Of a stretch of DNA of 64,000 nucleotides, positions 4,311 to 45,829 are shown piece by piece. Position numbers and translations under genes: made by a program. The notes beneath the pieces were generated by a model. It had not been told where the DNA came from, did no database searches, and saw only the letters and a program-made list of their open reading frames with translations. Within the stretch, counting starts at the first letter, position 1, and each line of letters opens with the position of its first letter. The stretch is from a virus (Duplodnaviria > Caudoviricetes): positions 1,460-65,459 of IMG/VR virus record IMGVR_UViG_3300048996_000065; one strand, written 5' to 3'.

Positions 4311-4354
4311 TTGTGCAAGTCTCCTAAAACCAGTTACGTGTGGTAGATACGAGA

Positions 4355-4376
4355 GGGCCCCGTTGCATAGGGGCCC
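4355..4376 (-). terminator. GC hairpin downstream of MCP (weak terminator or mRNA stabiliser)
   Basis: GGGCCCC-8 nt-GGGGCCC; poor U tract. Confidence 0.45.
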
Positions 4377-4401
4377 CCAAGGGAATCAATTCCAAATCCG
4401 G

Positions 4402-5319: not shown

Positions 5320-5332
5320 GAATTATTCTCCG

Positions 5333-5911: not shown

Positions 5912-5947
5912 TTTGAGAAGATCTCCGCGTTAGCGAAATGTTCCCCG

Positions 5948-6514: not shown

Positions 6515-6541
6515 CTAACTAGCTCCTATATAGCCAGCGGT

Positions 6542-7644: not shown

Positions 7645-8106
7645 TTAGTCGAGATACGCTTTCACTTTGAGCGGATCGCCTCGGTATCTACCCAGCAGAT
7701 CCAGATCACGGAAAACGATGAAGATCGCAAACTCGCGGTCGTTAGTACCCGGAATCGGTAAACGCCACCGATCCCCGCCGTACTTCGTCACGCGCACGAA
7801 CTCTCCCGGTTCACACCAATCTCCTTCTTTCCAAGATTCCAGGGTGTCCTGGTTCTTGAAAGCGGTGTCGCCGAGAGCAAGAACTTTAGCAACCTGCGTG
7901 CTCCACTGATCCGTCTCTTGAGCATCGTCAGGAATGATGATACCGCCGTCAGACATTTTCTTTGACGTGCGGAGCTGAACAAGAACCCGGTCGCCAAACG
8001 GCTCGAACTCCGGGTCTATTGCAGGGAAGGCTGCCGCCAGGGCTGCCGCATACGCGGCACTAACCTCTTGGGCGGGGAGGCTTTTCAATCGGGTTTGGTT
8101 GCTCAT
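7645..8106 (-). CDS. groES: Co-chaperonin GroES-like protein
   Basis: PFGDRVLVQ...GGIIIPD...KVLALG...WCEPGEFV..TKYGG. Confidence 0.85.
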   Translation of the reverse strand: MSNQTRLKSLPAQEVSAAYAAALAAAFPAIDPEFEPFGDRVLVQLRTSKKMSDGGIIIPDDAQETDQWSTQVAKVLALGDTAFKNQDTLESWKEGDWCEPGEFVRVTKYGGDRWRLPIPGTNDREFAIFIVFRDLDLLGRYRGDPLKVKAYLD

Positions 8107-8479: not shown

Positions 8480-8741
8480 CGGTTTCGTCCTCGGTGGTTT
8501 CGTCGTCATCAGTTTCATCTGTGTCGACATCGGTTTCATCTTCGTCATCATCGTCATCATCCGGCAGAAGATTGGCACCGTCGGGATTCAAACCAGTTGC
8601 TGGGAATCCCGCTACCTTCAAATCCTCGAGCCAAGACTTCCCATCCCAGACCCTTCGCCACACGGGCGAATGTCCGTCGGGTGAAAGCCATTCCATCCCC
8701 TTCGCGGGGTTTGTCGGTTCGATCAAACTTTTCTGACGCAT
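8328..8741 (-). CDS. Acidic hypothetical protein
   Basis: GGGAG RBS; Asp/Glu/Thr tract. Confidence 0.55.
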   Translation of the reverse strand: MRQKSLIEPTNPAKGMEWLSPDGHSPVWRRVWDGKSWLEDLKVAGFPATGLNPDGANLLPDDDDDDEDETDVDTDETDDDETTEDETDERSDTTEIPAGDGKQEPDQGTGSEQRGKREEIQGRRKSGKRKGNARRKG

Positions 8742-8751
8742 CTTGCTCCCC

Positions 8752-8985
8752 TTATCGAGTGATATGCTTCGTGGCCCACATGACCGCTTCTTCTACCTTC
8801 GTCTTAGCGGACGAAAGCTCGCGGGATACACCGAAGCTTTCGATCAACTCGAAAAGCTCCAAGCCCTTATCCTTAACGGCTTGCATCTGAAGTTTCTCTT
8901 CGGGGGACAACACGCGGTAAGCGTGACGCATGACGTTGTTGACAACGCGCTCGTCAGAGGTTGAATTCACGGTTTCGAGAGGCAT
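8752..8985 (-). CDS. Acb2/Tad1-like cyclic-nucleotide sponge (putative anti-CBASS)
   Basis: YRVLSPEEKLQMQAVKDKG and RELSSAKTKVEEAVMWA resemble the Acb2-type helical hairpin family. Confidence 0.65.
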   Translation of the reverse strand: MPLETVNSTSDERVVNNVMRHAYRVLSPEEKLQMQAVKDKGLELFELIESFGVSRELSSAKTKVEEAVMWATKHITR

Positions 8986-8991
8986 GCTTAG

Positions 8992-31386: not shown

Positions 31387-31484
31387 GATTCGAATATAAG
31401 TGCAAGCATTGCCATAAAATCTATCGGGTCAATTACAACCGTTGCCCATGGTGCGGTGGACCCCTAGAGGAGAATGTATCATGA
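31383..31484 (+). CDS. Tiny Zn-ribbon protein
   Basis: GTG start, FEYKCKHC...RCPWCG; coupled at both ends. Confidence 0.45.
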   Translation: MRFEYKCKHCHKIYRVNYNRCPWCGGPLEENVS

Positions 31485-32125
31485 TCGGTCGTCGATTCTA
31501 TGATCTGCTGGAAATCAGCGAGGATGCCACGCAGAAGGATATCAAGGACGCATATCGTCGGCTGTCTTCCCGGTACCACCCTGATAAGCAACACGGTAAG
31601 TCGCAGGATGAGGCGGAAGAAAATGCCAAGCGCTTCGTGGATGTGAAAACCGCTTACGAGTGTTTGAATGATCCCGAGAAGCGGGTCATCTACGACGAGA
31701 GTGGCGATGACTCGTCCGGCCCTAAAGCCGATCCCGTAGAAGACTTGTTCATGACCATGTTGAACGAGCTGATCGAAGATTCGGATAGCATCGCGGAGCT
31801 ACTAGCTAAATGCCGGCATGCTACCGAAGCCTTGATCAGCGACGTGGATGTTCGTAAAGCCGAACAGAACAAACTTATTTGGCGGCTCGAGCGGATCATG
31901 AAGAAAGTCAAATACAAAGGTAAAGGAGCTAACCTAATCGAAGGGGTGTACGCGGATAAGATAAAGAATGCAAAAGCCGGGTTGGAGGACTTGGTAGACG
32001 CTGGCAATGCCGCTAACGGCCTCTTAACCTTGCTGAAGGATTATGAGCCGTTGGATCGATACGACGGGAAGCGGGATTCCATAATCGATCCCGCCCAGCT
32101 TCTTCGTGACTTTACTAGGATTTAA
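31481..32125 (+). CDS. J-domain (DnaJ-like) protein
   Basis: FYDLLEI...IKDAYRRL...YHPDK...AYECL.DPEKR..YD; GAGGAG RBS. Confidence 0.9.
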   Translation: MIGRRFYDLLEISEDATQKDIKDAYRRLSSRYHPDKQHGKSQDEAEENAKRFVDVKTAYECLNDPEKRVIYDESGDDSSGPKADPVEDLFMTMLNELIEDSDSIAELLAKCRHATEALISDVDVRKAEQNKLIWRLERIMKKVKYKGKGANLIEGVYADKIKNAKAGLEDLVDAGNAANGLLTLLKDYEPLDRYDGKRDSIIDPAQLLRDFTRI

Positions 32126-34262
32126 CCCAGAAGACTTCGGTGTCTTTTGATTCACCGCATGCGACGATGTCAGCTACTGTGAGCTGAGCTATAACGTCCT
32201 CCAAATCCCTCGCGGTCAGATGCCGGCACAGACGAGTAAGGACACTTCGCGGCATCATCCCCGTAGTCATCAGTTCGATGGCTTTCTTATCATTCTTCGC
32301 ACGACTGACGAATTCTCGACAGTGCCGGATATAGCGCTCCACCGTTTTGGAGCGTTGCTCGACGATCGTACGCGATGAACTCTCCTCGACCCGTACGCGC
32401 CAGCGCTCTGTGCTCCAGCGGATGAATTTAAGCGACCACTCGGCGATCGATTCCGTAATGCGGGGCTGCTTAGGATTCACCCCCACCGCCACGATGCCCG
32501 CAAGGATGATAGCATTCTGGTTAGCTCGACCCCAAACACCCGCACTATCATTTTGAAATGCATTGGTGCGAGACTCGTAGTCGAAATCTCGGAACATGTT
32601 ATAGACGTCGGTCGTATCGAATCGTATACGTCGGAACGGTCCGTCCCCGTTAGTAGGGGTAGACATCCCCTTTATGACTTTATAGAAATCGTCGAACTTG
32701 GAAGGGAAAACGGTTTGGCGATTTAAGTTGGCTTGTGGTACGCGGTCGCCAGAGTCGAATAGAACGAACCGATTAACGAACCCCTGAGCGATATCCGAAT
32801 CCGTCAGGGCTTCGAGCATCTGAGCGGGTTGGGACGCCGCCATGCATAGGAAGAAGGGGTTTTCGATTGCGCTAATAGCGTTCTTGCGAGCCGGAATCCC
32901 TGGCGAGCTGCCGTTAGCCCGTCCGTATAGCGAAAGCAGCCAGGTAAGAATCGAGAAGTCCTGCCCGCCTTGCGAGCGGTTAGCGGAACGCATCTTACGA
33001 GCGGCCTCATCCCAGAGCCAACAGGCTACGTTGGGAGCTGACGATAATCGATCGAGCATCGCGTGGTAGGATTGAAACCCCTGGAAAGCGTAATCACCCA
33101 GGCCAAGCTTGCGAGCGAATTGATAAACCGATTCGAGCGCGGATTCTTTACCGCCGGCTGTTGGCGCCAATAGCATGAAGTAGGGTTGCAGTGGTGTATC
33201 CCATCCCTCTACAACATATCGATTCATGGTCATCAGGGATGCGGACATCAATCCAACGGACAAATCGAAGGTGGGTTGTGTTAGAAATGATCGTCGCGCG
33301 GACCATGCAGCAATCTCGCCTACGATGCCAGGAACTTTACACAGGGATTCGATATCTTCCTGTTCTTTTAATCGGATCTTGGGCTTGAATCCTTTCTGTA
33401 CCACCTCGTAGTTCTTACTAAGGCTTAACCAGGATTTGATGAGCCGCATATCCTCACCATGCATCCATTGCGATAACGTGCGCCAGCCGGCAATGCGATT
33501 TCCCTCGCGAAAATGCGTGATCGTATTCTCAATGGTGCGCTCGCGTTGCGGCCGATCGTTTTCCTTGTTATATACCGCGTCCAGAATCGCACGTCCGAAC
33601 GAACGCACCTTATCTTCTTCCCAACCCTCCCAGAGCAGTGCGCCCGCAATCGCATGAATGTAGTCGTGACGACCGCCCTTCTCAGGGTAATAGCGTGCGA
33701 AGAGTGCAGCGGCTGATACTTGATTTACCAGCAGTTCGAGATTTTTCTTCGTGATCGTCCGGATTTCGATATCGTGATTGATCTCGTACCGTTCCTTATC
33801 TGGGTGCATCGATGGCGGCAATACGGATTGGGCACCAGAGGCACGAACTTCCGAAATGACGGAACGTTTCGCAGAATCCCCCGCACCGCTGTCATAACGT
33901 TTATATCCTGCAGCTCCCTCCACCCGATACAAGTAGTGCGTGCTGGGGCGACTTCTTCGACCGTACACAAAGGTTTCGGGAAGGATACGGGGGGCAGCTC
34001 TGGAAGCCTCGTCCCAATCAAGATCAACGTCGATGATCCCGTTAGACGGAGAACCCCATAATCCACCAACATTATCACCTCGTTGAAAGAATCGTGGGAT
34101 TGTGTCATGGGTCACCTTTAATTTGTTCCAGCCCTTGCCATCCTTCGGCTTCTTCGATCGAGGGGCTATAGGAACAGGCATGATGCCGCGTTCGAGCCAA
34201 GACCGGGCGATTGAAACACTGTCAATTTTACGCGAAGGGATTTTTCCCTTAAGCTTAGGCAT
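32115..34262 (-). CDS. Primase-polymerase fused to P-loop helicase domain
   Basis: N-terminal Prim-Pol (DVDLD, HYLY, QSVLPPSMHP); Walker A APTAGGKE; Walker B WDE; GFVNRF. Confidence 0.85.
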   Translation of the reverse strand: MPKLKGKIPSRKIDSVSIARSWLERGIMPVPIAPRSKKPKDGKGWNKLKVTHDTIPRFFQRGDNVGGLWGSPSNGIIDVDLDWDEASRAAPRILPETFVYGRRSRPSTHYLYRVEGAAGYKRYDSGAGDSAKRSVISEVRASGAQSVLPPSMHPDKERYEINHDIEIRTITKKNLELLVNQVSAAALFARYYPEKGGRHDYIHAIAGALLWEGWEEDKVRSFGRAILDAVYNKENDRPQRERTIENTITHFREGNRIAGWRTLSQWMHGEDMRLIKSWLSLSKNYEVVQKGFKPKIRLKEQEDIESLCKVPGIVGEIAAWSARRSFLTQPTFDLSVGLMSASLMTMNRYVVEGWDTPLQPYFMLLAPTAGGKESALESVYQFARKLGLGDYAFQGFQSYHAMLDRLSSAPNVACWLWDEAARKMRSANRSQGGQDFSILTWLLSLYGRANGSSPGIPARKNAISAIENPFFLCMAASQPAQMLEALTDSDIAQGFVNRFVLFDSGDRVPQANLNRQTVFPSKFDDFYKVIKGMSTPTNGDGPFRRIRFDTTDVYNMFRDFDYESRTNAFQNDSAGVWGRANQNAIILAGIVAVGVNPKQPRITESIAEWSLKFIRWSTERWRVRVEESSSRTIVEQRSKTVERYIRHCREFVSRAKNDKKAIELMTTGMMPRSVLTRLCRHLTARDLEDVIAQLTVADIVACGESKDTEVFWVKS

Positions 34263-34316
34263 GTCCGATTTACTCCAGTGGGTTGGACTATTAGGCGGGT
34301 TAAGACTTAGGGTGTC

Positions 34317-34508
34317 TTAGCTCGCCTTTTTCTTTCGTCCACGTTTCACTGCGTTGATTTTGAGAGCGCGTTTCACACGCGAATAAGAATTAGCTTCGAT
34401 TAGGACCGCGTACCCGTGACGGGAAACGGGAATCTCTAACGCTTTCAAGTAGCGGCTCAATCGCTGAATCGAAACCCCCAGGCTACGCGAGGCCGTGCTT
34501 AGATTCAT
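34317..34508 (-). CDS. Small HTH DNA-binding protein
   Basis: MNLSTASRSLGVSIQRLSRYL...KRGRKKK. Confidence 0.55.
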   Translation of the reverse strand: MNLSTASRSLGVSIQRLSRYLKALEIPVSRHGYAVLIEANSYSRVKRALKINAVKRGRKKKAS

Positions 34509-34675
34509 AGGAAAGCGTGCGCGCGTGCGTTCGTTATATGCGGCATCCGCCGATATAGTGCTCATCGTTGAATTTACCTGTACGTTGTAAAGCCCGCTGG
34601 GCTATTATGTTGAGCGATCACGATAGCCCGAAAATCCCTAAATTAAAAATAGTCTTTTCATCTGGAGCACACTGC

Positions 34676-35191
34676 ATGAGCATAGTATGCGTGGAAGGTT
34701 GTGATGGTAGCGGCAAAACAACTCTCATCGAAAAAGCGCGCGGGTCTCAGAAGGATCGTTACTTCCTTACTGTTCGAGCGTCACGTTATCCCCCCGACGT
34801 GTCCACGGCCGTTCGTTATCTGAACTTTGTTACGAGAACACACAGTCGACTTGATGTGGTTCTCGATCGAATTCATTTCATCTCCGATCGCATCTACGGA
34901 CCCGTTCTCCGTAATGCCGACATCTTCAAAGACTTTTCGATCGTCTACGGTTTATCCGAAGTCGACATAGTCGTATATGCGCGACCCCCGCGTGAAGTGA
35001 TTCTGGAAAACGTTCGCAAGGGAATGCAGCTGGGTGGCGTAATCGAAAACGCAGAAGCCATCATCGATCGTTACGATGAACACATGGCCAAGTTGCGTAA
35101 CGAGGGAGTAACTGTGATGGTTTACGATTACACCTCGGACGATCCGGTGGTGTTCTGGAATCACGTCTGGCAAAAAGCCCAAGGGGAATAA
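34676..35191 (+). CDS. Deoxynucleoside monophosphate kinase (TMK-like)
   Basis: VEGCDGSGKTT P-loop; LDR...SDRIYG; GGAG RBS. Confidence 0.85.
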   Translation: MSIVCVEGCDGSGKTTLIEKARGSQKDRYFLTVRASRYPPDVSTAVRYLNFVTRTHSRLDVVLDRIHFISDRIYGPVLRNADIFKDFSIVYGLSEVDIVVYARPPREVILENVRKGMQLGGVIENAEAIIDRYDEHMAKLRNEGVTVMVYDYTSDDPVVFWNHVWQKAQGE

Positions 35192-35192
35192 C

Positions 35193-35783
35193 ATGAGCGA
35201 ACCTTTCAAAAGAATCATGCGCCATCAGGCAATACTAATGGCCAACTTCCGGGAGATCGAATTCGGGAACGGGTTCAACTTCCCAGGATGGCCGGTCGAC
35301 CCGGCAAGCATGCAGGGACAGCACGAGATCCGTCGACTCGCGTGGTGCATTCAGGAGGAGCTGTGCGAGGCCGATGAAGCATCGGACATCGAATCCCACC
35401 TGGAGTCCAGACATAAGCTCCTGACGCACAAAGAGATGATCGATGCGTTGCACTTCATTGCCGAGCTGATGCTAACGCTCGGTTACTGGCCCGAGGATCT
35501 GCCGCCGCAACCCGCCATCTTCATGACAGAGATATACACGCTTCCAGCTCATCTGTATATCACCATGACGGATTTGGGGAAAACGATCAATCTCTGCAAA
35601 TCAAAACCCTGGAAGCAGTCGTTGAAAACGTTCGATGAGGATCAGTTCAAACAAAAGCTTTCTCGCTTCATCTGTTCGTTCTTCCGCACGTGCTACGCCC
35701 TGGGCCTGAATGACGAGGTCATTGAAATGGTGTATATGGGCAAAGCTTACGAGAATCAAGAACGAATCGACGCAGGGGTATGA
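35193..35783 (+). CDS. All-alpha dimeric dUTPase/dCTPase-like pyrophosphatase
   Basis: EELCEA, EMIDALHF, KPWK, Y.GK..EN..R...G motifs. Confidence 0.75.
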   Translation: MSEPFKRIMRHQAILMANFREIEFGNGFNFPGWPVDPASMQGQHEIRRLAWCIQEELCEADEASDIESHLESRHKLLTHKEMIDALHFIAELMLTLGYWPEDLPPQPAIFMTEIYTLPAHLYITMTDLGKTINLCKSKPWKQSLKTFDEDQFKQKLSRFICSFFRTCYALGLNDEVIEMVYMGKAYENQERIDAGV

Positions 35784-35784
35784 C

Positions 35785-36594
35785 ATGTCCTTCTATGCCC
35801 GAGACTTTATCGTCGATCTGATCAAACGTGAAGCCTTTCTATATGCGGGAGTGCGCAAGATTGTTCAGGGTGTTTCGTGGACGGCTCCGAACCCGTTTCC
35901 AACCCTGAAATTCGATGAGCTTGGATATGGAAGTAATAAATTCAAGCAACTCCAGAGAAATTACTTCGATCAGGAAGAAGTAAACCGCGTAAAATCGCAG
36001 CTAACAAAAAGGAAGCGCGCGGCGTTCACGGCCGTAGCGATGAACATGAAAGCGGGTAAGAAAGACTCTCGGAGCATGGGACACTGCATGCAAACGTTGG
36101 TGATCAATCGTACACCGAAGGTGACTACGGTTGAGTTGCAATATCGATCCACCGAAGCGATCCTAAAGTTCGGTGGCGATATTTGTTATCTTCCGTGGGT
36201 GTTCAACCAGCTGGAAATCGAGCCGTCAACGGTGCGATTCCATTTCGCTAATGCTTTTATAAGCGGCGTGTATTTCCCTACGCTATTTACGACGTGGAAC
36301 CCGATCAGCTACCTGGAGCTGCTATGGGCTCACGATCGTAAGCTCTTCGCCGGCGGTACGCGCTTCCTGTTGCGGAGCGCGTATAAGCGGGACCAGCATT
36401 TCCCGTATAGCCCGGAAAACCTGCAACATCGATTTTTGTGGGAACGAGTCGGACCTCCGACGATCAAGCGAATCAAAGATTACTTGGAAGAAAAACATAA
36501 GCTCTTCGGTAAGCCGCTCCCGAAGTTGCATCACAAAAAGGACGGTTCTTATATTCCTCGCGGTAAACGAAAACACACTGGAGACGACGAATGA
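35785..36594 (+). CDS. Divergent thymidylate-synthase-fold protein 1
   Basis: GHCMQ Cys 20 residues before YRSTEAILKFGGD (TS RSxD...N motif, here RSxE...D). Confidence 0.6.
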   Translation: MSFYARDFIVDLIKREAFLYAGVRKIVQGVSWTAPNPFPTLKFDELGYGSNKFKQLQRNYFDQEEVNRVKSQLTKRKRAAFTAVAMNMKAGKKDSRSMGHCMQTLVINRTPKVTTVELQYRSTEAILKFGGDICYLPWVFNQLEIEPSTVRFHFANAFISGVYFPTLFTTWNPISYLELLWAHDRKLFAGGTRFLLRSAYKRDQHFPYSPENLQHRFLWERVGPPTIKRIKDYLEEKHKLFGKPLPKLHHKKDGSYIPRGKRKHTGDDE

Positions 36595-37064
36595 AAGTTG
36601 CATTGTGCGGATCTACTCGGTACATGGACCAATTCAACGCTGCTAACGTAGCGCTCACGCTTGCGGGCCATGTGGTTTATTCGGTTGCTACGTCCACGAA
36701 AGGGGACTTCATACCGACGGATGACCAGAAGCTTCTACTCGACATGGTTCACTTGCGTAAAATTCACGAAAGTGACATGATCGTGGTCGTCGGTCGTCAA
36801 GAAGACGGTTCGTTCTATATCGGCGATTCCACACGACGCGAAATGATGTACGCGGCCGTGTTTGATAAGGAAATCGTTTTCTACGAACCGAATGGCCACG
36901 CTCATGGAGCCAATTGCGAATTCGAGAAAAGAATCAAACGAGCGAAACAAACGGATGCAGAGCGTGAGTTGTTGGAAAAGGAACGCGAAGTTCGGATGTC
37001 CCAGATGATGGGCACATTCGGTTTGGAGGTTTCCCCAGACGCTGAGAATCCAATCACGAACTAA
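36591..37064 (+). CDS. Nucleoside 2-deoxyribosyltransferase-like protein
   Basis: LCGSTR, LTLAGHVV, H.RKI..SD.I.VV, YIGDST..E..YA. Confidence 0.7.
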   Translation: MKVALCGSTRYMDQFNAANVALTLAGHVVYSVATSTKGDFIPTDDQKLLLDMVHLRKIHESDMIVVVGRQEDGSFYIGDSTRREMMYAAVFDKEIVFYEPNGHAHGANCEFEKRIKRAKQTDAERELLEKEREVRMSQMMGTFGLEVSPDAENPITN

Positions 37065-37140
37065 GATTGTCTGGCCCCCCTCCAACTCGCTAGCTAGCCT
37101 CAGGGTTTGCTCGGTTGGAGGACGGGGCTGGGCTTAGGAG
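37061..37140 (+). promoter_or_regulatory. Long imperfect hairpin overlapping the thyX RBS
   Basis: CTAAG/CTTAG, GTCTGGCCCC/GGGGCTGGGC and CTCCAAC/GTTGGAG nested stems. Confidence 0.5.
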
Positions 37141-37146
37141 CTGTGT

Positions 37147-37863
37147 ATGAAAGTTGACGTATTGGACCACGGCTACGTGGAGTTCATCGAAGCCTGGGGT
37201 ACTGGAAGAGACGGGCATGGTAGCGAAGTCGATATGGAACCCCGCGACTACGAAGTTGGAATCATCGAAGCCGCACGCCAATCGACGCAGGGGTCTTTCA
37301 GAGGGTGGGAGGAGGATTGGAAGCTTCTGACATTTCTTTATAACAATACCCCACCGCACGCGGGGCCATTCGAGTTCGCCGGCATGACCATCGAAGTACA
37401 GGCGCCAATCTTCGTCTTCCGCGAATGGCATCGACACCGAACGCAGAGCTACAACGAGATGAGCGCTCGATATACCCCGCTCCCCGACTTGTATTACTAT
37501 CCTACCGTCGAGCGGATTTTGCGGGATGGTGGAAAGAATAAGCAGGCTCAGGGAATTGTCCCGTTAGAACGGGGAGACGCCGAAGGAGCAATCCATGCGA
37601 TTGCCGAAGCTTACGCAGATGCCGAGAGAATCTATCAACACCTATTGAAGAAAGGTGTTCCAAAAGAAGTTGCTCGTGTCGTGATGCCCGTTGGGCATTA
37701 TTCCCGGATGCGTGCGACGGGCAACCTACGAAATTGGCTAGCGTTTCTGACTCTGCGCTGCGATCCCAACGCTCAATGGGAGATTCAACAATACGCCAAC
37801 ATCGTCGCATCAATCATCGCGAAGAATTTTCCTCGCACGTATTCTCAGTGGGTGAAAAAATGA
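37147..37863 (+). CDS. thyX: Flavin-dependent thymidylate synthase
   Basis: H.GPFEF, APIFVFREWHRHRTQSYNEMSARY, KEVAR, NLRNW, AQWEI. Confidence 0.95.
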   Translation: MKVDVLDHGYVEFIEAWGTGRDGHGSEVDMEPRDYEVGIIEAARQSTQGSFRGWEEDWKLLTFLYNNTPPHAGPFEFAGMTIEVQAPIFVFREWHRHRTQSYNEMSARYTPLPDLYYYPTVERILRDGGKNKQAQGIVPLERGDAEGAIHAIAEAYADAERIYQHLLKKGVPKEVARVVMPVGHYSRMRATGNLRNWLAFLTLRCDPNAQWEIQQYANIVASIIAKNFPRTYSQWVKK

Positions 37864-38690
37864 CTATATATCCATCTTTCGAAGCGGCAGTCAATGCTGC
37901 ACGTCAACGGCTAATCACCGTTGGCCAGTGGGTGAAGGGCGATCAGTGGCAAAGCATGGATGTGTCTGACAAGCCCGAAATGGTAACGAGAGAGGTTTTA
38001 AATTTCTCGTTCCAAGTCCCCGTTCAGGGTGAATCGCTTAAAGCACTGCGAGCTGACATTAAACCGAATCTGCCGTGGGCCGATGACCATTTCTCGGAAC
38101 GTGTTAGCGGCCAACCCGCAAACCCCGGTGAGCAGTGGGCGAAGTGGCCATGGGGAAATAGCGCCGATAAGTTCAGGGTTGAGCAAGGCGGGCAATTTTC
38201 GCATACGTATATGGAGCGCTTCTGGCCGAAGTTTGCGAATGTAGCTGGCGACGGTCCGAACGGCGAGCCGCTGGAGCACCAGATAAAGCGGGGCATTCGC
38301 TATCGGTACGGGGATCTTCGAGACGTCGTCAAGCATCTTCGTAATCACCCGCTGTCCCGTCAGGCTTATCTTCCGATCTGGTTCCCTGAGGATACCGGAA
38401 CCGTGCACAAGGAAAGAGTCCCATGCACCCTGGGTTATCACTTCATTCAGCGGAGCGGGTTTCTTCACACCAATTACTACATTCGATCCTGCGACGTTGT
38501 CCGGCATTTCCAGGACGATATCTATCTGGCCGTTCGATTGAAGCTTTGGCTGCTGGACGAGCTGCGCAAGATCGATCCAATGTGGAAAAAAGTTAGTCCA
38601 GGGTTCTTCACAATGCATATCACGTCGTTGCATTGCTTTAAGAATGATATCACCAAATACGTGAAGGACGGCAAATGGTGTGTTGAATAA
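37860..38690 (+). CDS. ThyA-fold pyrimidine C5-modifying enzyme (dCMP hydroxymethylase-like)
   Basis: SRQA..PIW, RVPCTLGYHF, IRSCDVVRHFQDD (Asp at the E. coli TS Asn177 position), HITSLH. Confidence 0.85.
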   Translation: MTIYPSFEAAVNAARQRLITVGQWVKGDQWQSMDVSDKPEMVTREVLNFSFQVPVQGESLKALRADIKPNLPWADDHFSERVSGQPANPGEQWAKWPWGNSADKFRVEQGGQFSHTYMERFWPKFANVAGDGPNGEPLEHQIKRGIRYRYGDLRDVVKHLRNHPLSRQAYLPIWFPEDTGTVHKERVPCTLGYHFIQRSGFLHTNYYIRSCDVVRHFQDDIYLAVRLKLWLLDELRKIDPMWKKVSPGFFTMHITSLHCFKNDITKYVKDGKWCVE

Positions 38691-39360
38691 ATTCAATCAA
38701 GACGTGCATCTCTGGGAACACGAAAGTATCGCCGATTTTTGGAGAACCCATGTCCCTACCTACAAATCCAAAAGCATTAGACCCTTCTTTGCTCGATTCC
38801 CTTTCGAAGGATTGGAAGGATATGCCAAAGCGATTCGAGCCGTCTCTGCGAAGAGATCAGATAACCGCATCCGAAACTATGTTGACTCATCGGAGATGTT
38901 ACGGGTGCGGCAACGTCTTCATGGTGGATCCTCGCAGTTCTCAAAAGGAGTGCGGTCCGGGATGTCAGTACGAGACGGTGAGATTAAATCAAAAAAGAGA
39001 AATGGAGCTAAAGACGTTTCAATCCGTTTCGGAGTCAGTAAGACAGGACATGGTTATTCGGGTGAACGAGGCGATTTCTGCCTCGTTTCGGCAGTTTACA
39101 GCGGAAACACCCTCGCCTTCTTTTACCGTTCCATCGAGCTTATCGGCGGATTCGCTTTTGACACGGTTCTCGTCGACCACGTCTGCAAGGAACTCGGGAT
39201 CAAACCGAAATTCATCGAGATCTGGGCCACCAAAGCTTTTGTGTTCGCCCTCAAAGGCAACAGCAACGAAAAACTTTACCCCAAACTCAAAAGGATCTTT
39301 CGAACAAAGGAAGGACCAAAAGCAAAACCCCTAACTTTTGATGGCAACTACGATGGCTAA
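38680..39360 (+). CDS. Divergent thymidylate-synthase-fold protein 2
   Basis: GDFCLV Cys followed by FYRSIELIGGFAFD; RNY segment shared with paralogue 1. Confidence 0.55.
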   Translation: MLNKFNQDVHLWEHESIADFWRTHVPTYKSKSIRPFFARFPFEGLEGYAKAIRAVSAKRSDNRIRNYVDSSEMLRVRQRLHGGSSQFSKGVRSGMSVRDGEIKSKKRNGAKDVSIRFGVSKTGHGYSGERGDFCLVSAVYSGNTLAFFYRSIELIGGFAFDTVLVDHVCKELGIKPKFIEIWATKAFVFALKGNSNEKLYPKLKRIFRTKEGPKAKPLTFDGNYDG

Positions 39361-39823
39361 GGTTGTAAGTTCGCTGAAATTTAACCTGATCTTCGAAGCC
39401 GCCAACTACGACGGTTCGATAGTCAGGGAATGGCAGTGCGTGAAGTACCCGTCACTGTATTGCCGAACTTTGGCAAAATCCAAATTGCCTTTGATCCGAG
39501 CCTATTACGTGAAGAAGCCCGATAATCACATAAAAGACTTCGGAACGCTGGAAGGCGCTTTACCGATGGCTAGAAAAACTACTGGAGAATTGCATGAAAC
39601 GGTTAATGTTCGACATCGAAACTCTGTCAACGTTCCCAAACGCGGCTCTGCTGGCCGTAGCGATCGTAGTGATGGACGACAAAAAACCAAAACAGCAGGA
39701 CTGGATGGCGCGCGGGTGGTTCATCGATCCCAACCTGACGATCGGCCACGTAAATCCCGAGACGATGGATTTTTGGAACGATCAACCAAACCAAGTAAAA
39801 AGCCTGGTCTTCGCCGGAAATGA
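39353..39823 (+). CDS. Hypothetical protein (3' part overlaps exonuclease gene)
   Basis: MAKVVSSL start fills the gap between neighbours. Confidence 0.4.
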   Translation: MAKVVSSLKFNLIFEAANYDGSIVREWQCVKYPSLYCRTLAKSKLPLIRAYYVKKPDNHIKDFGTLEGALPMARKTTGELHETVNVRHRNSVNVPKRGSAGRSDRSDGRQKTKTAGLDGARVVHRSQPDDRPRKSRDDGFLERSTKPSKKPGLRRK

Positions 39824-40160
39824 TACGCCGCGTGAAGTGCTGCAATCGATCAACGGATTTCTAGGGTCCGCTATCGACGATGTGGAGAACGGCGATTATC
39901 TCTGCTACGCTGATCCTGCCGCCTTCGACTTCCCCATCCTAATCTATCAGTATCAGCAGTGCGGAATGATTCCAGGCTGGCATTGGCGTAAGCAACGCTG
40001 CATGGGCGCAATGCGTAAAGCGCTGGAAGAAGAGGCGGAGTGGGAGATCGATCGAGTTGAAGCTGAGCTCAAGCATCACCCGGTTCACGACGCGCTGGCC
40101 CAGATGCACGAGCTGAAGAACGTGCTGAAGGCTTACCATTCAATCAAGGTGCTGAAATGA
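39594..40160 (+). CDS. DnaQ-like 3'-5' exonuclease
   Basis: MFDIETL, FDFPIL, HHPVHDA (DEDDh). Confidence 0.85.
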   Translation: MKRLMFDIETLSTFPNAALLAVAIVVMDDKKPKQQDWMARGWFIDPNLTIGHVNPETMDFWNDQPNQVKSLVFAGNDTPREVLQSINGFLGSAIDDVENGDYLCYADPAAFDFPILIYQYQQCGMIPGWHWRKQRCMGAMRKALEEEAEWEIDRVEAELKHHPVHDALAQMHELKNVLKAYHSIKVLK

Positions 40161-40600
40161 AAACCAAACGCATTAGCCGTGAGCAAGCGCTAATGGAGAT
40201 GGCGATTTCCGCTTCAAGACGCTCAACCTGTCAACGACGCGATGTAGGGGCGTTGATTGCAATCGACGGGCGTCCCGTGGTGACCGGGTATTCGGGAGCA
40301 CCCTCTAAGATGATCGATTGTTTAAAAGGCGGATGCATCCTCGGACCCGACGGTGGTTGTATCAGAACCGTGCATGCCGAAGCAAACGCTATCGTGTTCG
40401 CAGCTCGCAAGGGAATTGCGTGCGAGGGAGGAACGCTATACACCACCCTTAGTCCTTGCCCCGATTGCGCTAACATGATCATCAATGCGGGCATCACTCG
40501 AGTGTGGTATCTGGAACCCTACCGTATAGTAGATGGTATAACCATCCTCCGTGAGATGGGGATTGGTTGCGATCACCTGTTGTTCGATTTCGATCTATGA
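40157..40600 (+). CDS. dcd: dCMP deaminase
   Basis: RSTC.RR.VGA, TGY.G, HAEANAI, PCPDC. Confidence 0.9.
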   Translation: MKTKRISREQALMEMAISASRRSTCQRRDVGALIAIDGRPVVTGYSGAPSKMIDCLKGGCILGPDGGCIRTVHAEANAIVFAARKGIACEGGTLYTTLSPCPDCANMIINAGITRVWYLEPYRIVDGITILREMGIGCDHLLFDFDL

Positions 40601-43137
40601 ATCGCAATCCTAAGTGCACGGATTGCAAATTTCACGAAACGGCTAAAACCGTGTGTCTTCCGGGGGAAGGACCGAAGAACGCACGAGTGATGATTATCGG
40701 AGAGTCCCCCGGCTTCGATGATGACCATACTGGAAGACCCTTTCAGGGTAAAGGCGGACGCTTGCTCAAGGAGGAGCTGGTCCGAGCTGGAATTGCACCG
40801 GAAGAGTGCTATATAACGCACACCGTTAAATGCGCTCCGCCCGGTGACTCGGAACCGAAGGCGCCAGAACTCAAAGCATGCCGCAAATACCTGGAATCCG
40901 AGCTGGCCGAGGTGAAACCCGAATACGTGATAGCGCTCGGCCGCATTGCATCGAAAGCGGTTCTAAAGGAAACGAAGATAACCGAGGTACACGGACAGAT
41001 CAAGGAATTTAAAGATCTCCTGGGATCTTTCAAGGGCATGGCAGCATTCAGCCCCAACTTTTGTTTACGTGATCCGTCGAAGCTCCCGATTCTCCGTAAA
41101 GATCTGGGGCGAGTCATCGGAGAAGTGCTCGGTAAGAAAAAAGAAGTACGTGCGCCGTTTAAATGGCGTGAGGTCAACGACGAAAATATCCATGAATTCT
41201 ATCGAGCGTTGATCAATTGCGAGTGGTTCTCATTCGACTTAGAAACGTCTGGGCTCGACTGGTTCAATCCCAAGGGTTGGATTACATGCTTGAACATGTC
41301 GTTCGATCGGGACGGTGGAACCTGGGTTCTGCCGATGACTATGCCATTCTCGCCATATGCATTTTTCGATAGACAGAAATTCATCATTCGCAAAATTGCG
41401 AGACTGCTTAAGGACGGTAAGAAGAAAGGATGCGCACATAACGGCAAGTTCGATAATCACTGGCTCTGGCGTATCTTCGGGGTCCTATTTCCGCTTCACT
41501 TCGATACCATGCTGGCGTCGCATTGCATCGATGAGAATCGAGCTCACGCCCTGGACTCGCTTGCTACGTCCTACCTCGATGCCCCGTACTACGATATCCC
41601 GCTGCATTGGAAGCAGGGGCAATGGAAACCCGGCGAAGGAACGCGCGCAAACGTGCGTACGGTTTACCGTTACGGCGCTAAAGACGCCTATTACACGCTT
41701 ACGATGCGTCCGATCATGGAGAAGGAGCTTCGTACCGATCCGCAGGTGTTCAGACTTTTCCGACGTTTGGTGATGCGCGCCGCCCGTGCTTTCCATCGTA
41801 TCGAAGACAACGGATTGTATGTGATCCGCAAACGCTTCGTGGATACCCGGAAGCAGGTGGTGATCGATCGAGATGCGGCATTGGTTGATTTAAATTGCAT
41901 GGCCGGCAAGGTTGATGTCCGATCCGGGGTGAAGCGCAAGATCAATTGGAATTCACCGCAACAGGTAGCAAAGCTTTTATTTGAGAAGCTAAAGCTGCCC
42001 GTGATCGAACGTACGGAAACCGGAGCACCCTCCACCGGCGAGAACACGCTGATTGCATTGAAGAATAAGCACCCGGTTGCGAATGCGTTGGTAAAATATC
42101 GGGAGTTAGATAAATTTCTGGGAACCTACCTGGATGGTTGGAAATCGCTGATGCATAAGGATCGAGTGTACTTCAGTTATAAGTTGCACGGAACCGTAAC
42201 AGGGAGATATTCGTCTAGGTTGCATCAGACACCACGAGATAAGCGCATCCGTACAACGGTGTCCGCTCCGGACGGGTGGACATTCGTTCAGGGTGACTTC
42301 TCGCAAGCTGAGTTGCGCATCGCTGCAATTCTATCCGGCGACCTAGAAATGTTACGATGCTTCGCCGAAGGTATCGACATCCATTGGAAAACCCTGATGT
42401 ATGTCATTCAATCCGGGGGCGTAGGGGAGTATGTCAAGCATGTCAAAAAGACCGCTCGTGTACTTGCGGGCAAGAAAGTCGGGTTTAACGATGCTATTGA
42501 GCTTGTGCTCCAAGCCGGACATAAGCGTTGCATTGAGATCTGGGACGGATGGAAGGAAGCTCGTAAAAAAGCGAAAGGCATCAACTTCGGCTTCGTGTAC
42601 GGCATGCGAGAAAATAAGTTCATCGAGTACGCAAAGGCTAATTACGACTTCGAGCCCACTCAGGAAGAAGCTCGATTGATTCGACGTGCCTACTTCCAGC
42701 TGTATCGCGGATTGGAGCCGTGGCATGAGAAAATGCGCAAGCTTGTACGGCTCGACGGCTCGGTTAGGAGCTTAAGCGGGCGACTGCGACGATTGCCCGG
42801 GGTTAGCTCCTCGGACCGTTCGCTACGCTCCGAATGCGAACGGCAAGCGATAAATAGCCCCGTACAGGGGTATATCGGCGACCATAAAGCGATGGCGCTA
42901 GTAGAGTTGGCCGATAAGCTGGATTGGAATCGTTCGCGTCTGGTCGGTGAGGTACACGATTCCCTGCTGTTCTGGGTACGTACCGAGCTGCTAGCCGAGG
43001 AGCTGCCGAAGATCGCCGCAATCATGCGAGACCCCGAATTGCTCAAAGAATTCAAAATCGATCTCCCCGTGAAAATCGAGCCGGAACTGGAAGTAGGTGA
43101 CTGGGGTGCGGGTAAGGAGTGGAAAATGGCAGCGTGA
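40597..43137 (+). CDS. polA: Family A DNA polymerase with N-terminal family-4 UDG-like domain
   Basis: UDG: CTDC, GESPG, GRPF.G.GG, VKC.PP, KAC; exonuclease: FDLETSG, HNGKFD, YGAKDA; polymerase: DFSQAELR, KAKGINFG..YG, VHDS. Confidence 0.95.
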   Translation: MNRNPKCTDCKFHETAKTVCLPGEGPKNARVMIIGESPGFDDDHTGRPFQGKGGRLLKEELVRAGIAPEECYITHTVKCAPPGDSEPKAPELKACRKYLESELAEVKPEYVIALGRIASKAVLKETKITEVHGQIKEFKDLLGSFKGMAAFSPNFCLRDPSKLPILRKDLGRVIGEVLGKKKEVRAPFKWREVNDENIHEFYRALINCEWFSFDLETSGLDWFNPKGWITCLNMSFDRDGGTWVLPMTMPFSPYAFFDRQKFIIRKIARLLKDGKKKGCAHNGKFDNHWLWRIFGVLFPLHFDTMLASHCIDENRAHALDSLATSYLDAPYYDIPLHWKQGQWKPGEGTRANVRTVYRYGAKDAYYTLTMRPIMEKELRTDPQVFRLFRRLVMRAARAFHRIEDNGLYVIRKRFVDTRKQVVIDRDAALVDLNCMAGKVDVRSGVKRKINWNSPQQVAKLLFEKLKLPVIERTETGAPSTGENTLIALKNKHPVANALVKYRELDKFLGTYLDGWKSLMHKDRVYFSYKLHGTVTGRYSSRLHQTPRDKRIRTTVSAPDGWTFVQGDFSQAELRIAAILSGDLEMLRCFAEGIDIHWKTLMYVIQSGGVGEYVKHVKKTARVLAGKKVGFNDAIELVLQAGHKRCIEIWDGWKEARKKAKGINFGFVYGMRENKFIEYAKANYDFEPTQEEARLIRRAYFQLYRGLEPWHEKMRKLVRLDGSVRSLSGRLRRLPGVSSSDRSLRSECERQAINSPVQGYIGDHKAMALVELADKLDWNRSRLVGEVHDSLLFWVRTELLAEELPKIAAIMRDPELLKEFKIDLPVKIEPELEVGDWGAGKEWKMAA

Positions 43138-43146
43138 AAATAGATG

Positions 43147-43174
43147 TTGCTAGTTGAATCGATTGCTTTAGAAT
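43147..43174 (+). promoter_or_regulatory. Sigma70-type promoter
   Basis: TTGCTA-16 nt-TAGAAT, upstream of AGGAG RBS. Confidence 0.45.
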
Positions 43175-43198
43175 AATCAGCCCAATTAGGAGTTTGCC

Positions 43199-44173
43199 AT
43201 GCCTTCGGTAAGCTTTAGCAGAATCAAGACCTGGCGGCGCTGTCACTATCAGCACCATCTGAAATACAACGAACGTCTCGCACGTAAACGGCGAGCCATC
43301 CCCTTGCTACGGGGACAAATTCTTGGTGAGATGCTCGATGCGCGAGCCATGCCCATTCTGAAACAGGACCCTTACAAGATTCTCAAAAAATATGAAAAGG
43401 AGTATTCGCGTCTGTTCGAGGAGGAGCGCGAGAAGTGGGGGGACGTTCCCGGAGATACGCGTAAGCTTTTCGAAGGCTATATGCGCAAGTATGCGAACGA
43501 GGGATTACAATACCTGACCCACGAGGAATTCATCGCTCTGGACTTAGTGAAGGACATCCGCTTTATCGGGTATATCGACAAGCGCGTTACGAACGAGCGC
43601 AACCTGATGTTCTTGATGGATCACAAATCCAACCGTATGATCCCGAACGAGGATCAACGATTCTCGGATCTGCAAAAGGTTTTCTACGTCTGGGCTTTCA
43701 ACAGTCAGAACGCTACGAAGCAGGTAGCGGGGTTTATCTGGGACTACATTCGAACAAAAGCGCCGACGATCCCTCAGCTACTAAAAAGCGGCGAGCTGTC
43801 CCAGGCGAAGAACATCGATACGGACTATTGGACGTATTTGCTTGAAATCAAAAAGCATCGTCTGAACGTCAAGGACTACACGGAAACGTTGGCGCGCTTG
43901 AAAAAGCAGGAAGACCGCACGTATATCAGGATCACGAATGCGGCCCCGTCGAAAGCGATGATCAACAATCTCGTGCAGGATTTGAAGGATACGGCGAAGG
44001 AAATCCACACGTCGAAGGCCCGCGATCGTAACATGACACGCATGTGCCCTAGCGATTGCGATTTCTACAACCTATGCCGTGCGGAAGTTTGCGGACTCGA
44101 TTCCGCATTCGTACGTAAGGCCGAATATGAGGAGCGCGAACCAAGTGAGCGTGAAGAAGCTGAAGAAGATTAA
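43199..44173 (+). CDS. PD-(D/E)XK Cas4/RecB-like exonuclease
   Basis: SFSRI..W.RC, GYID...DHKS, C..DCDFY.LC. Confidence 0.85.
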   Translation: MPSVSFSRIKTWRRCHYQHHLKYNERLARKRRAIPLLRGQILGEMLDARAMPILKQDPYKILKKYEKEYSRLFEEEREKWGDVPGDTRKLFEGYMRKYANEGLQYLTHEEFIALDLVKDIRFIGYIDKRVTNERNLMFLMDHKSNRMIPNEDQRFSDLQKVFYVWAFNSQNATKQVAGFIWDYIRTKAPTIPQLLKSGELSQAKNIDTDYWTYLLEIKKHRLNVKDYTETLARLKKQEDRTYIRITNAAPSKAMINNLVQDLKDTAKEIHTSKARDRNMTRMCPSDCDFYNLCRAEVCGLDSAFVRKAEYEEREPSEREEAEED

Positions 44174-44987
44174 ATCGGTGGGGAAGAAGCATGCAGATAT
44201 TAGCGATGAGATCATGCCTCTTTCTGAGATGCCAGACTATTCGTCCATACTGCTCTACGGAGAAGCGGGAACGGGTAAGACGGCACTCTCCGGTACATTC
44301 CCGAAGTCAATGCTTGTGCTGGACATCAAGGAGAAAGGCACCAAAACGATTCGCAAGACTCCTGGCATTCAGGGAATCTTGATCAAGGAATGGGAGAAGC
44401 TTGAGGACGTGTATTGGTACCTTAAGGAAGGCAAGGGCAACGGTCGATTCAAAACGGTCAGCTTGGACCAAATCACGGCTCTTCAGGATTTGGCGATCGA
44501 CAAGGTACGTCGCGACCGGAATATGAAGGAGCATGAACCGATGTCGCAACGACTCTGGGGTCAGGCATCAGGGTTGCTAAAGACCTGGCTGGGTAATTTC
44601 CGGGATCTGCAAGACGATAACATGTATATGTTGTTCATTGCTCACCAGCGCACCTTTGGCGGAGGGGACGAAGAAGACGACAATCGGATCGACCCCACGA
44701 TTGGCGCACGGCTGATGCCTTCCGTTACGTCCTACCTGAACGGTGCGGTTTCCACGATCGGGCACACGTTCATCCGGGAACGTTTCGTCGGTAAGGGGAA
44801 AGATAGAATCAGGAAAGTCGAATATTGCTTGAGAGTCGGGCCTCATGCGATGTATCATTCGAAAATTCGGAGACCGGTGGAAGCCGGGTTATTGCCGGAT
44901 GTCATTGTGAACCCGACCTTCGAGAAAATCGAAAGGGTTTCTCGGGGAGAGGAATTGTCAACTAAACCCAAGATGAGGAAGAAGTAA
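44145..44987 (+). CDS. AAA-family ATPase (Sak4-like recombination protein)
   Basis: LLYGEAGTGKT, LDIKEKG, SLDQIT, IAHQ; GTG start after GAGGAG. Confidence 0.8.
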   Translation: MSVKKLKKIKSVGKKHADISDEIMPLSEMPDYSSILLYGEAGTGKTALSGTFPKSMLVLDIKEKGTKTIRKTPGIQGILIKEWEKLEDVYWYLKEGKGNGRFKTVSLDQITALQDLAIDKVRRDRNMKEHEPMSQRLWGQASGLLKTWLGNFRDLQDDNMYMLFIAHQRTFGGGDEEDDNRIDPTIGARLMPSVTSYLNGAVSTIGHTFIRERFVGKGKDRIRKVEYCLRVGPHAMYHSKIRRPVEAGLLPDVIVNPTFEKIERVSRGEELSTKPKMRKK

Positions 44988-45829
44988 TGGCACGTTCAAC
45001 CCGTAGCAAGAAAAAGAAGACGGTATCGGTGGATTTAACTGGCGTGGAAGCCGGCGGTAGAAGTTGCCCGGATGGTACGTATCGGTTCTCGGTTACGGAG
45101 GCTGAGAAGACCGAATCCAACGAAGGCAACGATATGTTCAAAGTCAAGCTGAAGGGCTTGACCGGCAAAGCGAAGGGTGTCACCATTTACGACAACCTGT
45201 CGTTGCTGCCCCAGGCGCTCTGGAAGCTGAAGGGATTCCTGCTCTCGCTTGGAGCTGATGCTGAGGGCGAGGTCGACATCGATTGCTCGGACTGGATCGA
45301 TGAGGAACTTACCGCCGTCATCGTGAACGAAACGTATGAAGGCAAGCCTCGGCCGAAGGTGGTCGAGTATTCCCTGTCGGATGCGAGTGACGATAGCGGT
45401 GAGGAAGAGGAAGAAGAAGAAGAAGAAGAAGAAGAGGAAGAGACTCCAAAGAAACGCGGTAAGCGTTCCGCGAAGAAGGACGAGGAGGAAGAAGAGGAAG
45501 AAGAAGACGAGGACGAAGAGGAAGAGGAAGAAGAGGAAGAAGAAGAGGAAGAGGAAGAGGAAGAAGACGAGGAATCCGACGACGACTCCGAAGAAGAGGA
45601 GGAAGAAGAGGAGGAAGAAGAGGAAGAGGAAGAAGAAGAGGCCCCAAAGAAACGCGGTAAGCGTGGCAAGAAGCCGAAGTTCGATATCGGTGCGAAAGTG
45701 AAGTTCAAGGACGAGAAGGGAAAGAACGTTGCCGGAGTCGTCATGGCCGTCGACGGTGATTCACTGACCATCGAAGACAAGAAAGGTCAGGAATGGGAAG
45801 TCGAAGCGGACGAGGTTGCGGCAGCGTAA
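44987..45829 (+). CDS. DUF669-type ssDNA-binding protein with poly-Glu linker and C-terminal SH3-like domain
   Basis: PDGTY...E.TES..GN.M, ALWKLKGFL, ETYEGK; acidic tracts; FDIGAKVKF...W.V. Confidence 0.75.
   Translation: MARSTRSKKKKTVSVDLTGVEAGGRSCPDGTYRFSVTEAEKTESNEGNDMFKVKLKGLTGKAKGVTIYDNLSLLPQALWKLKGFLLSLGADAEGEVDIDCSDWIDEELTAVIVNETYEGKPRPKVVEYSLSDASDDSGEEEEEEEEEEEEEETPKKRGKRSAKKDEEEEEEEEDEDEEEEEEEEEEEEEEEEEDEESDDDSEEEEEEEEEEEEEEEEEAPKKRGKRGKKPKFDIGAKVKFKDEKGKNVAGVVMAVDGDSLTIEDKKGQEWEVEADEVAAA
45401..45664 (+). repeat. GAA/GAG low-complexity tracts plus duplicated CCAAAGAAACGCGGTAAGCGT
   Basis: Poly-Glu coding runs; PKKRGKR encoded twice (about 45446 and 45644). Confidence 0.85.

Follow-up and report, generated by a model that had tools for sequence, protein, structure and literature searches.

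Gene organisation around the polymerase gene

The IMG/VR virus record IMGVR_UViG_3300048996_000065 (65,459 bp) has direct terminal repeats and a completeness rating of 100%. Bases 1460-65459 of it, the stretch of 64,000 nucleotides that was analysed and is called the window here, contain an operon for a divergent ThyA homologue (P6) and two proteins with a predicted thymidylate synthase (TS) fold (P3 and P7), together with enzymes of nucleotide metabolism and replication. P3 and P7 belong to a new protein family that is invisible to Pfam, and the gene set as a whole, to judge by its protein families, probably replaces cytosine with a modified cytosine. The genes form a run on the plus strand, flanked by a primase-polymerase gene of divergent transcription, and in many cases a gene directly adjoins its neighbour or overlaps it by a few bases. 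Family scans and the positions of the open reading frames (ORFs) confirm the order, from kinase to PolA, that a first-pass annotation of the DNA had given:

34676..35191, plus strand: P-loop dNMP kinase, thymidylate-kinase-like (phrog_761 'thymidylate kinase', 2.8e-18)
35193..35783, plus strand: all-alpha NTP pyrophosphatase, dUTPase_2 / MazG-like (PF08761 3.9e-8, 34.2 bits against a cut-off of 22.9)
35785..36594, plus strand: P3, unannotated family with predicted TS fold (predicted structure; phrog_34294, function unknown, 8.8e-6)
36591..37064, plus strand: P4, small conserved protein without family match
37147..37863, plus strand: ThyX, flavin-dependent thymidylate synthase (PF02511 6.2e-40; TIGR02170 146.4 bits against a cut-off of 87.9)
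37860..38690, plus strand: P6, divergent ThyA-family enzyme (PF00303 27.4 bits against a cut-off of 24.3; phrog_160 1.3e-29)
38680..39360, plus strand: P7, second member of the P3 family (predicted structure; hhalign to the P3 family)
39594..40160, plus strand: 3'-5' exonuclease, Rv2179c-like (PF16473 2.5e-20; phrog_255 7.6e-28)
40157..40600, plus strand: zinc deaminase of the dCMP deaminase family (PF00383 5.6e-22; phrog_174 1.5e-46)
40567..43137, plus strand: UDG-PolA, with an N-terminal UDG-superfamily domain, a 3'-5' exonuclease domain and DNA polymerase I (PF00476 1e-67; PF03167 8.6e-28; PF01612 1.5e-19; phrog_17 4.6e-121)

P6 is a ThyA homologue of the cytosine type

Residues 152-220 of P6 align with Lactobacillus casei TS in HMMER, where the best PDB match is the N229D mutant (E 1.7e-5) and the CMP hydroxymethylase MilA (E 6.5e-4) and the 5-hydroxy-dCMP synthase AfhB (E 0.02) also match, and hhalign joins the P6 family to E. 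coli ThyA with a probability of 95% and E 5e-9. The two methods agree on the register, in which Cys189 corresponds to position 146, Arg209-Ser210-Cys211-Asp212 to positions 166-169 and Asp220 to Asn177; Arg186 falls at position 143 and Thr190 at position 147, and Tyr117 is aligned to ThyA Tyr94. Among 85 P6 homologues, drawn from 84 related loci, Cys146, Arg143 and Asp177 are kept in 84 and Asp169 in all 85, the sole exception being a second, long-branch copy in locus L016. On the strength of these alignments and this residue conservation, P6 is a genuine though divergent member of the ThyA family, with the cytosine-type active site. The Asn177 that gives canonical ThyA its uracil specificity is replaced by Asp in P6, as also in P3 and P7. 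An Asp at this position makes the enzyme specific for dCMP, and it is found enriched in metagenomic contigs with modified cytosine (PMC8670742).

Position 143 has been proposed to tell hydroxymethylases, which carry an acidic residue at the position of Leu143, from other members of the family (PMC13326640). The acidic residue of the T4 gp42 type is not found in P6, which has Arg there, as do 84 of the 85 homologues, and the Xp12 methylase has Asn; because of that Asn, the rule is not fully predictive. A call between methyl and hydroxymethyl from position 143 was accordingly rejected, and with Arg in P6 and Asn in the Xp12 methylase the product is therefore not readable from the sequence.

P3 and P7 form one family with a predicted TS fold

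Searches of Pfam and NCBIfam with P3 and P7 gave no match (none to PF00303 at E <= 0.1), and P7 had none in PHROG either. A word-indexed search returned 135 relatives of P3 and 184 of P7 at E <= 1e-3, and no Pfam domain was found in any of the 120 relatives listed for each; a profile search of 1.84 billion cluster representatives found at least 369 clusters of the P3 family at E <= 1e-3, of which 228 reached E <= 1e-10. The first-pass annotation had made its proposal depend on a TS fold in both proteins, and the fold was borne out on AlphaFold models by Foldseek and VIA. The models (AF2, template-free) had a predicted local distance difference test score (pLDDT) of 92.4 and a predicted template modelling score (pTM) of 0.87 for P3, from 39 sequences, and a pLDDT of 83.8 and a pTM of 0.79 for P7, from 40 sequences, with a low-confidence insert at about residues 82-111 of P7. 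In Foldseek searches of the PDB the best match was T4 dCMP hydroxymethylase for P3 (E 6e-5) and TS together with AfhB for P7 (E 4e-5), and among the matches listed for the two proteins all were of the TS family (TS, T4 dCMP hydroxymethylase and AfhB), with template modelling (TM) scores of 0.40-0.45. VIA placed P3 closest to AfhB (9iqu; Z 12.4 over 166 residues, root-mean-square deviation (rmsd) 3.3), followed by MilA (Z 11.7) and by TS and T4 dCMP hydroxymethylase (Z 10.6), and placed P7 closest to the same AfhB structure (Z 11.5 over 167 residues, rmsd 4.3), followed by MilA (Z 11.2) and TS (Z 9.6). A Z of at least 8 was reached by 396 of 1000 chains for P3 and 322 of 894 for P7, and among the matches listed all were TS-family chains, apart from the designed protein 4f2v in the case of P7. 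Both proteins are thus predicted from their models to have the TS alpha/beta fold.

By hhalign, P3 and P7 are homologous with a probability of 97% (E 6.6e-11 and 2e-11), and they are clearly paralogues, two copies of one separate unannotated family. The active-site signature reads Cys101, Tyr120-Arg121-Ser122, Glu124 and Asp132 in P3, and Cys134, Tyr149-Arg150-Ser151, Glu153 and Asp161 in P7. The motifs proved to be exactly as first annotated: the Cys precedes the Arg of the Arg-Ser motif by 20 residues in P6 and P3 and by 16 in P7, and the eleventh residue after this Arg, at position 177, is Asp in all three proteins. The third residue after it, at position 169, where ThyA has the Asp that contacts the folate pterin, is Asp in P6 and an invariant Glu in P3 and P7, the two of the three TS-fold proteins for which this replacement had been claimed; the change of Asp169 to Asn that marks the AfhB type occurs in none of them. 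The register of P3 on TS comes from weak hhalign alignments only, and the TS fold from predicted structures, not from sequence. In 66 diverse relatives of P3 (20-45% identity) the invariant residues, besides the start Met, are Lys52, Tyr60, Lys93, Cys101, Tyr120, Arg121, Glu124 and Asp132, and the Cys, the Tyr-Arg, the Glu and the Asp are invariant in each of the sets of 39, 40 and 66 sequences. Because these signature residues do not vary down to 20% identity, we argue that P3 and P7 have a live active site.

A link between P3/P7 and TS at the level of sequence was tried and dropped. The P3 family aligns with the P6 family in hhalign with E 0.04 and 0.052, which is weak, although the Cys, the Arg-Ser and the Asp fall in register, and P7 aligns with the P6 family with E 0.44; PF00303 was found in 0 of the 66 P3 relatives at E <= 0.01, and PDB searches with P3/P7-family profiles gave no TS match, two of the profiles returning no match at all. 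A profile of the P7 N-terminus (about residues 17-76) gave only weak matches to ribosomal protein eS17 (27 PDB sequences, best E 0.014), which are probably due to chance. No paper on the P3/P7 family was found in a literature search, the scope of which did not extend to lists of TS and deaminase genes in supplements that might include P6- or P3-type genes.

P4 is a small protein of possible NDT type

The first-pass annotation had called P4 similar to nucleoside 2-deoxyribosyltransferase (NDT), and this survives as a lead only. Neither Pfam, PHROG and NCBIfam nor the PDB sequences gave a match to P4. Its neighbour clusters in the Atlas have scores of 0.86-0.90, and the nearest include clusters with PF05014 (in 29% of members) and DUF4406 (in 56% of members) at scores of 0.86-0.87; a weak DUF4406 match (E 0.032) was found in one of nine P4 homologues, and one GenBank homologue is named 'deoxyribosyltransferase'. 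As a lead from these neighbours, P4 may possibly belong to the nucleoside 2-deoxyribosyltransferase / DUF4406 superfamily. Its gene sits between those of P3 and P6 in loci L006 and L088-L093, as it does in the window. In L006, the closest relative from IMG/VR, P4 and P6 are separated not by ThyX but by an ORF of 307 residues with DHH/GGGH-like motifs, noted by eye, and a second small P-loop protein (5160-6642).

The P3-P6 pair recurs in related phages

In tblastn searches, relatives of P6 were found in 151 phage records (E <= 1e-5), of P3 in 18 and of P7 in 7, and all 18 P3-bearing records belong to the closest P6 matches. P3 lies directly upstream of P6 in all four annotated phage loci that were opened (L001-L004), and a clear P3 homologue lies upstream in 15 of the 80 IMG/VR loci fetched with P6; six more (L044, L045, L050, L057, L061 and L076) have a weaker hidden Markov model match or the Cys...Arg...Asp motif in the upstream ORF. 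The two genes are adjacent in most loci, with a 4-nt overlap of start and stop codons in several, and are separated by up to about 2 kb with intervening genes in the window, L006, L007 and L094. Seven of the ten IMG/VR loci with P7 show the order P3, P6, P7 and deaminase gene (dcd), with PolA as well in 6/7; the pyrophosphatase gene precedes P3 in 6/7, P4 lies between P3 and P6 in 6/7, and ThyX is present in 1/7. Among all the loci with P3 and/or P7, ThyX was found only in L002 and L090. P6 and dcd stand 1.5 kb apart in the window, within one operon, and are adjacent in relatives. When all ORFs of 19 P3 loci and the window were clustered, the only recurrent partners of P3 were P6, PolA, the PD-(D/E)XK nuclease, the kinase, the deaminase and the pyrophosphatase, and a kinase homologue occupied the same position in 11 of these 20 loci.

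A quick tree with midpoint root gathered 45 rows into one clade (SH-aLRT 98). For 44 of these rows no neighbour was recognised, and the remaining one, L060, has dcd close by; the P6-type genes linked to a polymerase module lie outside this clade. Among loci L018-L084, many of them on contigs of 100-430 kb, there is a tight clade of solitary P6-type TS genes with Asp177, and no P3-like partner, kinase, deaminase or PolA was found within 7 kb of these genes.

The P3 family also occurs in cultured phages, among them PMBT14, Serbin and, in a diverged form, Muddy. Cultured phages with the P3, P6 and P7 trio are the Pseudomonas phages PMBT14, Almagne, Lebethron and STP12, and those with the P3-P6 pair are Serratia phage Serbin, Brevundimonas phage Polewnik and Mycobacterium smegmatis phage Muddy. 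The P3, P6 and P7 trio is contiguous in Pseudomonas phage PMBT14 (L004, NC_048687.1), in which the P7 homologue is unannotated: it is a protein of 182 residues (8598-9146) that runs in another frame over the first ~540 nt of gp46. The annotation of gp46 as 'dCMP deaminase' (319 residues, 8608-9567) is apparently too long at its 5' end. That gp46 might be a fusion of P7 and deaminase was considered and rejected on frame analysis, P7 being a separate ORF in another frame; longer forms in which P7 is fused were also sought and none turned up, which is weak evidence. Mycobacterium phage Muddy (L098) has the same layout, with kinase, dUTPase, gp47, the TS gp46, the deaminase gp45 and PolA. Its gp47 (4033-4926) gives a weak match to the P3 profile (11.9 bits) and has a Cys...Ser-Arg...Asp motif with Tyr at position 169. 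L050 and L057 share this Tyr, and L061 has His in its place, which indicates that the partner family has sub-types. A literature search found no paper on DNA modification in PMBT14, Serbin or Muddy.

Comparison with known cytosine-modifying systems

The operon type is already known, since a cytosine-type TS with pyrophosphatase, kinase, deaminase and PolA occurs in T4, in Xp12 and in cytosine-modified contigs. The hydroxymethylcytosine pathway of T4 comprises the dCTPase/dUTPase gp56, the dCMP hydroxymethylase gp42, the kinase gp1 and the deaminase cd. The same enzyme roles are present in the window, and the T4 hydroxymethylase is among the top structural matches of P3. In contrast to T4, however, P6 has Arg where an acidic residue would stand at position 143, no glycosyltransferase was recognised, and there are three TS-fold genes and not one.

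Modules of the Xp12 and metagenomic type, like that of the window, have an Asp177 ThyA homologue by a gene of the dCMP deaminase family, a pyrophosphatase and PolA, and share its predicted logic of nucleotide-level modification. In modified contigs, dCMP deaminases co-localise with TS, pyrophosphohydrolase and PolA, and the deaminases of Xp12 and PaMx74 can prefer 5-methyl-dC nucleotides (bioRxiv 2024.12.05.627091). The Xp12 TS is, however, only 27% identical to P6 over 56% of its length. Xp12 has dihydrofolate reductase (DHFR) and a HAD hydrolase beside its TS and has no homologue of P3, P7 (by tblastn) or P4, whereas the window adds ThyX.

The best structural matches of P3 and P7 belong to the flavin-dependent 5-hydroxy-dCMP synthases, TS homologues with Asp169 changed to Asn that were reported in 2026 (PMC13326640) and that include HY126 AfhB (PDB 9iqu/9iqc), RB69 gp48 and DLP3 gp80. 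Like P3 and P7, these are small TS-fold enzymes with Asp177, and they act on dCMP. Unlike them, P3 and P7 carry Glu at position 169, where P6 carries Asp; identity is 6-10%, and no arabinose or glycosyl genes were found. The second-best structural match, MilA, works with MilB in mildiomycin biosynthesis, where MilA is a CMP hydroxymethylase and MilB an N-glycosidase of the NDT superfamily (PMC12884076 for the role of MilB). As with P3 and P4, a TS-fold gene there adjoins a gene that is NDT-like, which on the side of P4 is a lead; the setting is an antibiotic cluster in the one case and a phage replication operon in the other. If P4 were of the NDT family, a precedent for such an enzyme in a phage operon for base replacement would be DmtZ of phages with 2-aminoadenine (Z) genomes, an NDT-family protein that hydrolyses canonical dAMP and moves the deoxyribose 5-phosphate to the replacement base (PMC12884076). 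DmtZ acts on purines, and its likeness to P4 would be one of role.

The first-pass annotation had spoken of a candidate undescribed pathway; the P3/P7 family is new, but the operon type has been described for T4, Xp12 and metagenomic contigs. The window contributes P7, a second paralogue that lies across P6 from P3, the membership of P3 and P7 in one family, P4 as a conserved member of the block in the closest lineage, and ThyX in the same operon.

A proposed route to modified cytosine and its alternatives

From family membership and gene order we lean, on balance, towards a pre-replicative module of a lytic phage that would replace cytosine at the nucleotide level. The dUTPase_2-type pyrophosphatase would convert dCTP (and dUTP) to the monophosphate, and P6, an enzyme of the folate type with Asp177, would place a one-carbon group, methyl or hydroxymethyl, onto C5 of dCMP. 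P3 and P7 would be catalytically competent and would bind a cytosine 5'-mononucleotide, the invariant Cys attacking C6; they might act on dCMP with some cofactor that departs from the usual folate arrangement, given Glu in place of Asp169, or might work on the nucleotide made by P6 and give it an additional or a different substituent at C5. The kinase would then phosphorylate the modified dCMP and PolA would incorporate the modified nucleotide, while dTMP would be supplied by the dCMP deaminase and ThyX, and P4, if it is of the NDT family, would remove or exchange the canonical base at the dNMP level. Completion of the chemistry at the nucleotide level fits the observation that no other conserved tailoring gene occurs in the P3 loci or in the window, where neither a glycosyltransferase, in line with the first-pass annotation, nor any other known tailoring enzyme was recognised among 59 other ORFs, most of which had no match of any kind. 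Nucleotide-level cytosine modification had been proposed in the first-pass annotation, and three TS-fold proteins with the cytosine-type Asp, in a fitting operon of kinase, pyrophosphatase, deaminase and PolA, speak for it; the operon logic, however, is not new.

Several observations weigh against this route. For this phage as for every relative, we infer the base modification itself. The link of P3 and P7 to TS by sequence profiles is not significant, whether to the P6 family in hhalign, to PDB profiles or to PF00303, and a comparison of the secondary structure of the P3 model with E. coli numbering makes P3 and P7 seem to be without most of the ThyA region that holds Glu58 and Trp80. PMC13326640 describes a bulky hydrophobic residue at position 143 for methylation and an acidic one for hydroxymethylation, and the Arg of P6 matches neither. 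No DHFR was found among the same 59 ORFs. P7, P4 and ThyX are missing from many relatives that have P3 and P6, and the clade of 45 rows consists of P6-type genes with no partner nearby.

As to what P3 and P7 contribute, we offer the more tentative proposal that their family, with its Cys, Tyr-Arg, Glu169 and Asp177 and its truncated folate region, may carry out an undescribed pyrimidine C5 chemistry, for example by capturing or exchanging a group at C5 of dCMP or of the nucleotide that P6 makes. Its carriers, including PMBT14, Serbin and, with the diverged form, Muddy, might then hold an as yet undescribed derivative of cytosine.

The main rival is that the module works as in Xp12, with P6 alone making 5-methyl- (or 5-hydroxymethyl-) dCMP. 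P3 and P7 would then be partner or regulatory subunits of TS fold that dimerise with P6 or with each other and lend phosphate-binding residues or tune specificity. TS enzymes are obligate dimers in which arginines are shared across the interface, and P6 has only one Arg of the Arg126/Arg127 pair, as Arg167-Gln168, which is invariant in its family. The adjacency of the P3 and P6 genes, often with the 4-nt overlap, would suit equal amounts of the two products, and five of the seven linked Asp177 TS homologues tested from metagenomic contigs made 5-methyl-dCMP (5mdCMP; bioRxiv 2024.12.05.627091). However, the equivalents of Cys, Arg166, Glu169 and Asp177 are invariant in P3 relatives down to 20% identity, which would be unexpected for a mere scaffold, and Xp12 itself manages without any P3 or P7 homologue detectable by tblastn. 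We regard this alternative as doubtful, though worth serious consideration.

It is improbable that the DNA holds no modified base and that the TS-fold enzymes and the deaminase serve to reshape nucleotide pools, for instance from dCMP through 5mdCMP to dTMP alongside ThyX. Xp12-type modules have been documented to deaminate 5-methyl-dC nucleotides to thymidine nucleotides (bioRxiv 2024.12.05.627091), and most phages with P3 and P6 show no ThyX in the fetched flanks and so must obtain dTMP in some way. The phage of the window encodes a full ThyX, however, a dedicated kinase and pyrophosphatase are conserved with the P3-P6 pair, as in systems that exclude dC, and Asp177 TS homologues are enriched in cytosine-modified contigs (PMC8670742). 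That P3 and P7 are unrelated to TS, the fold match and the motif being coincidence or a modelling artefact, would accord with the lack of a significant sequence-level link and with Foldseek TM-scores of only 0.40-0.45, but is very unlikely in view of confident, template-free models, matches over ~160 residues at Z 11-12 that are almost exclusively to TS-family chains, the Cys...Arg-Ser...Asp spacing in register in the weak hhalign alignment and, as a lead only, one Atlas neighbour cluster with PF00303 in 10% of its members.

The P3/P7 family adds to the TS superfamily a further branch with a different invariant active-site signature; its genes are associated with those of ThyA homologues of the cytosine type, and some of its carriers are laboratory-culturable phages. 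Were its product identified, it would become clear whether nature holds a further modified cytosine, and the family is a possible source of new enzymes to make or read modified DNA. The family is relevant, too, to the escape of such phages, one of which has been used in therapy, from restriction and other defences directed at nucleic acids.

Other features of the block and the window

The kinase lies in a frame that is open from 34568, and its matches in Pfam and NCBIfam are P-loop matches only, under the cut-offs. The pyrophosphatase also matches phrog_12184 and phrog_173 (nucleotide pyrophosphohydrolase) and is a candidate dCTPase/dUTPase, and the deaminase could have dCMP or a C5-modified dC nucleotide as its substrate. 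UDG-PolA is followed by a PD-(D/E)XK nuclease, a Sak4-like ATPase and a helicase. A megablast comparison of the operon with the phage collection gave no match, and no near-identical relative is present there. Promoter and terminator scans of 34000-43500 were uninformative, since the counts did not exceed the shuffled expectation. Between the genes of P7 and the exonuclease there is a gap of 234 nt, filled by an ORF at 39338-39823 (plus strand), which continues over the start of the exonuclease gene in a different frame; its first ~85 residues resemble, by eye, an ORF between P6 and dcd in L006 (7824-8183), so that it is maybe a small conserved gene. Between the Sak4-like ATPase and the helicase, 44987-45829 (plus strand) encodes a protein of 280 residues with very long poly-Glu/Asp tracts (phrog_3724, function unknown, 4e-26). 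Elsewhere in the window, a GroES-like co-chaperonin is encoded at 7645-8106 (minus strand; PF00166 2.5e-9) and a DnaJ-domain protein at 31442-32125 (plus strand; PF00226 1.4e-20).

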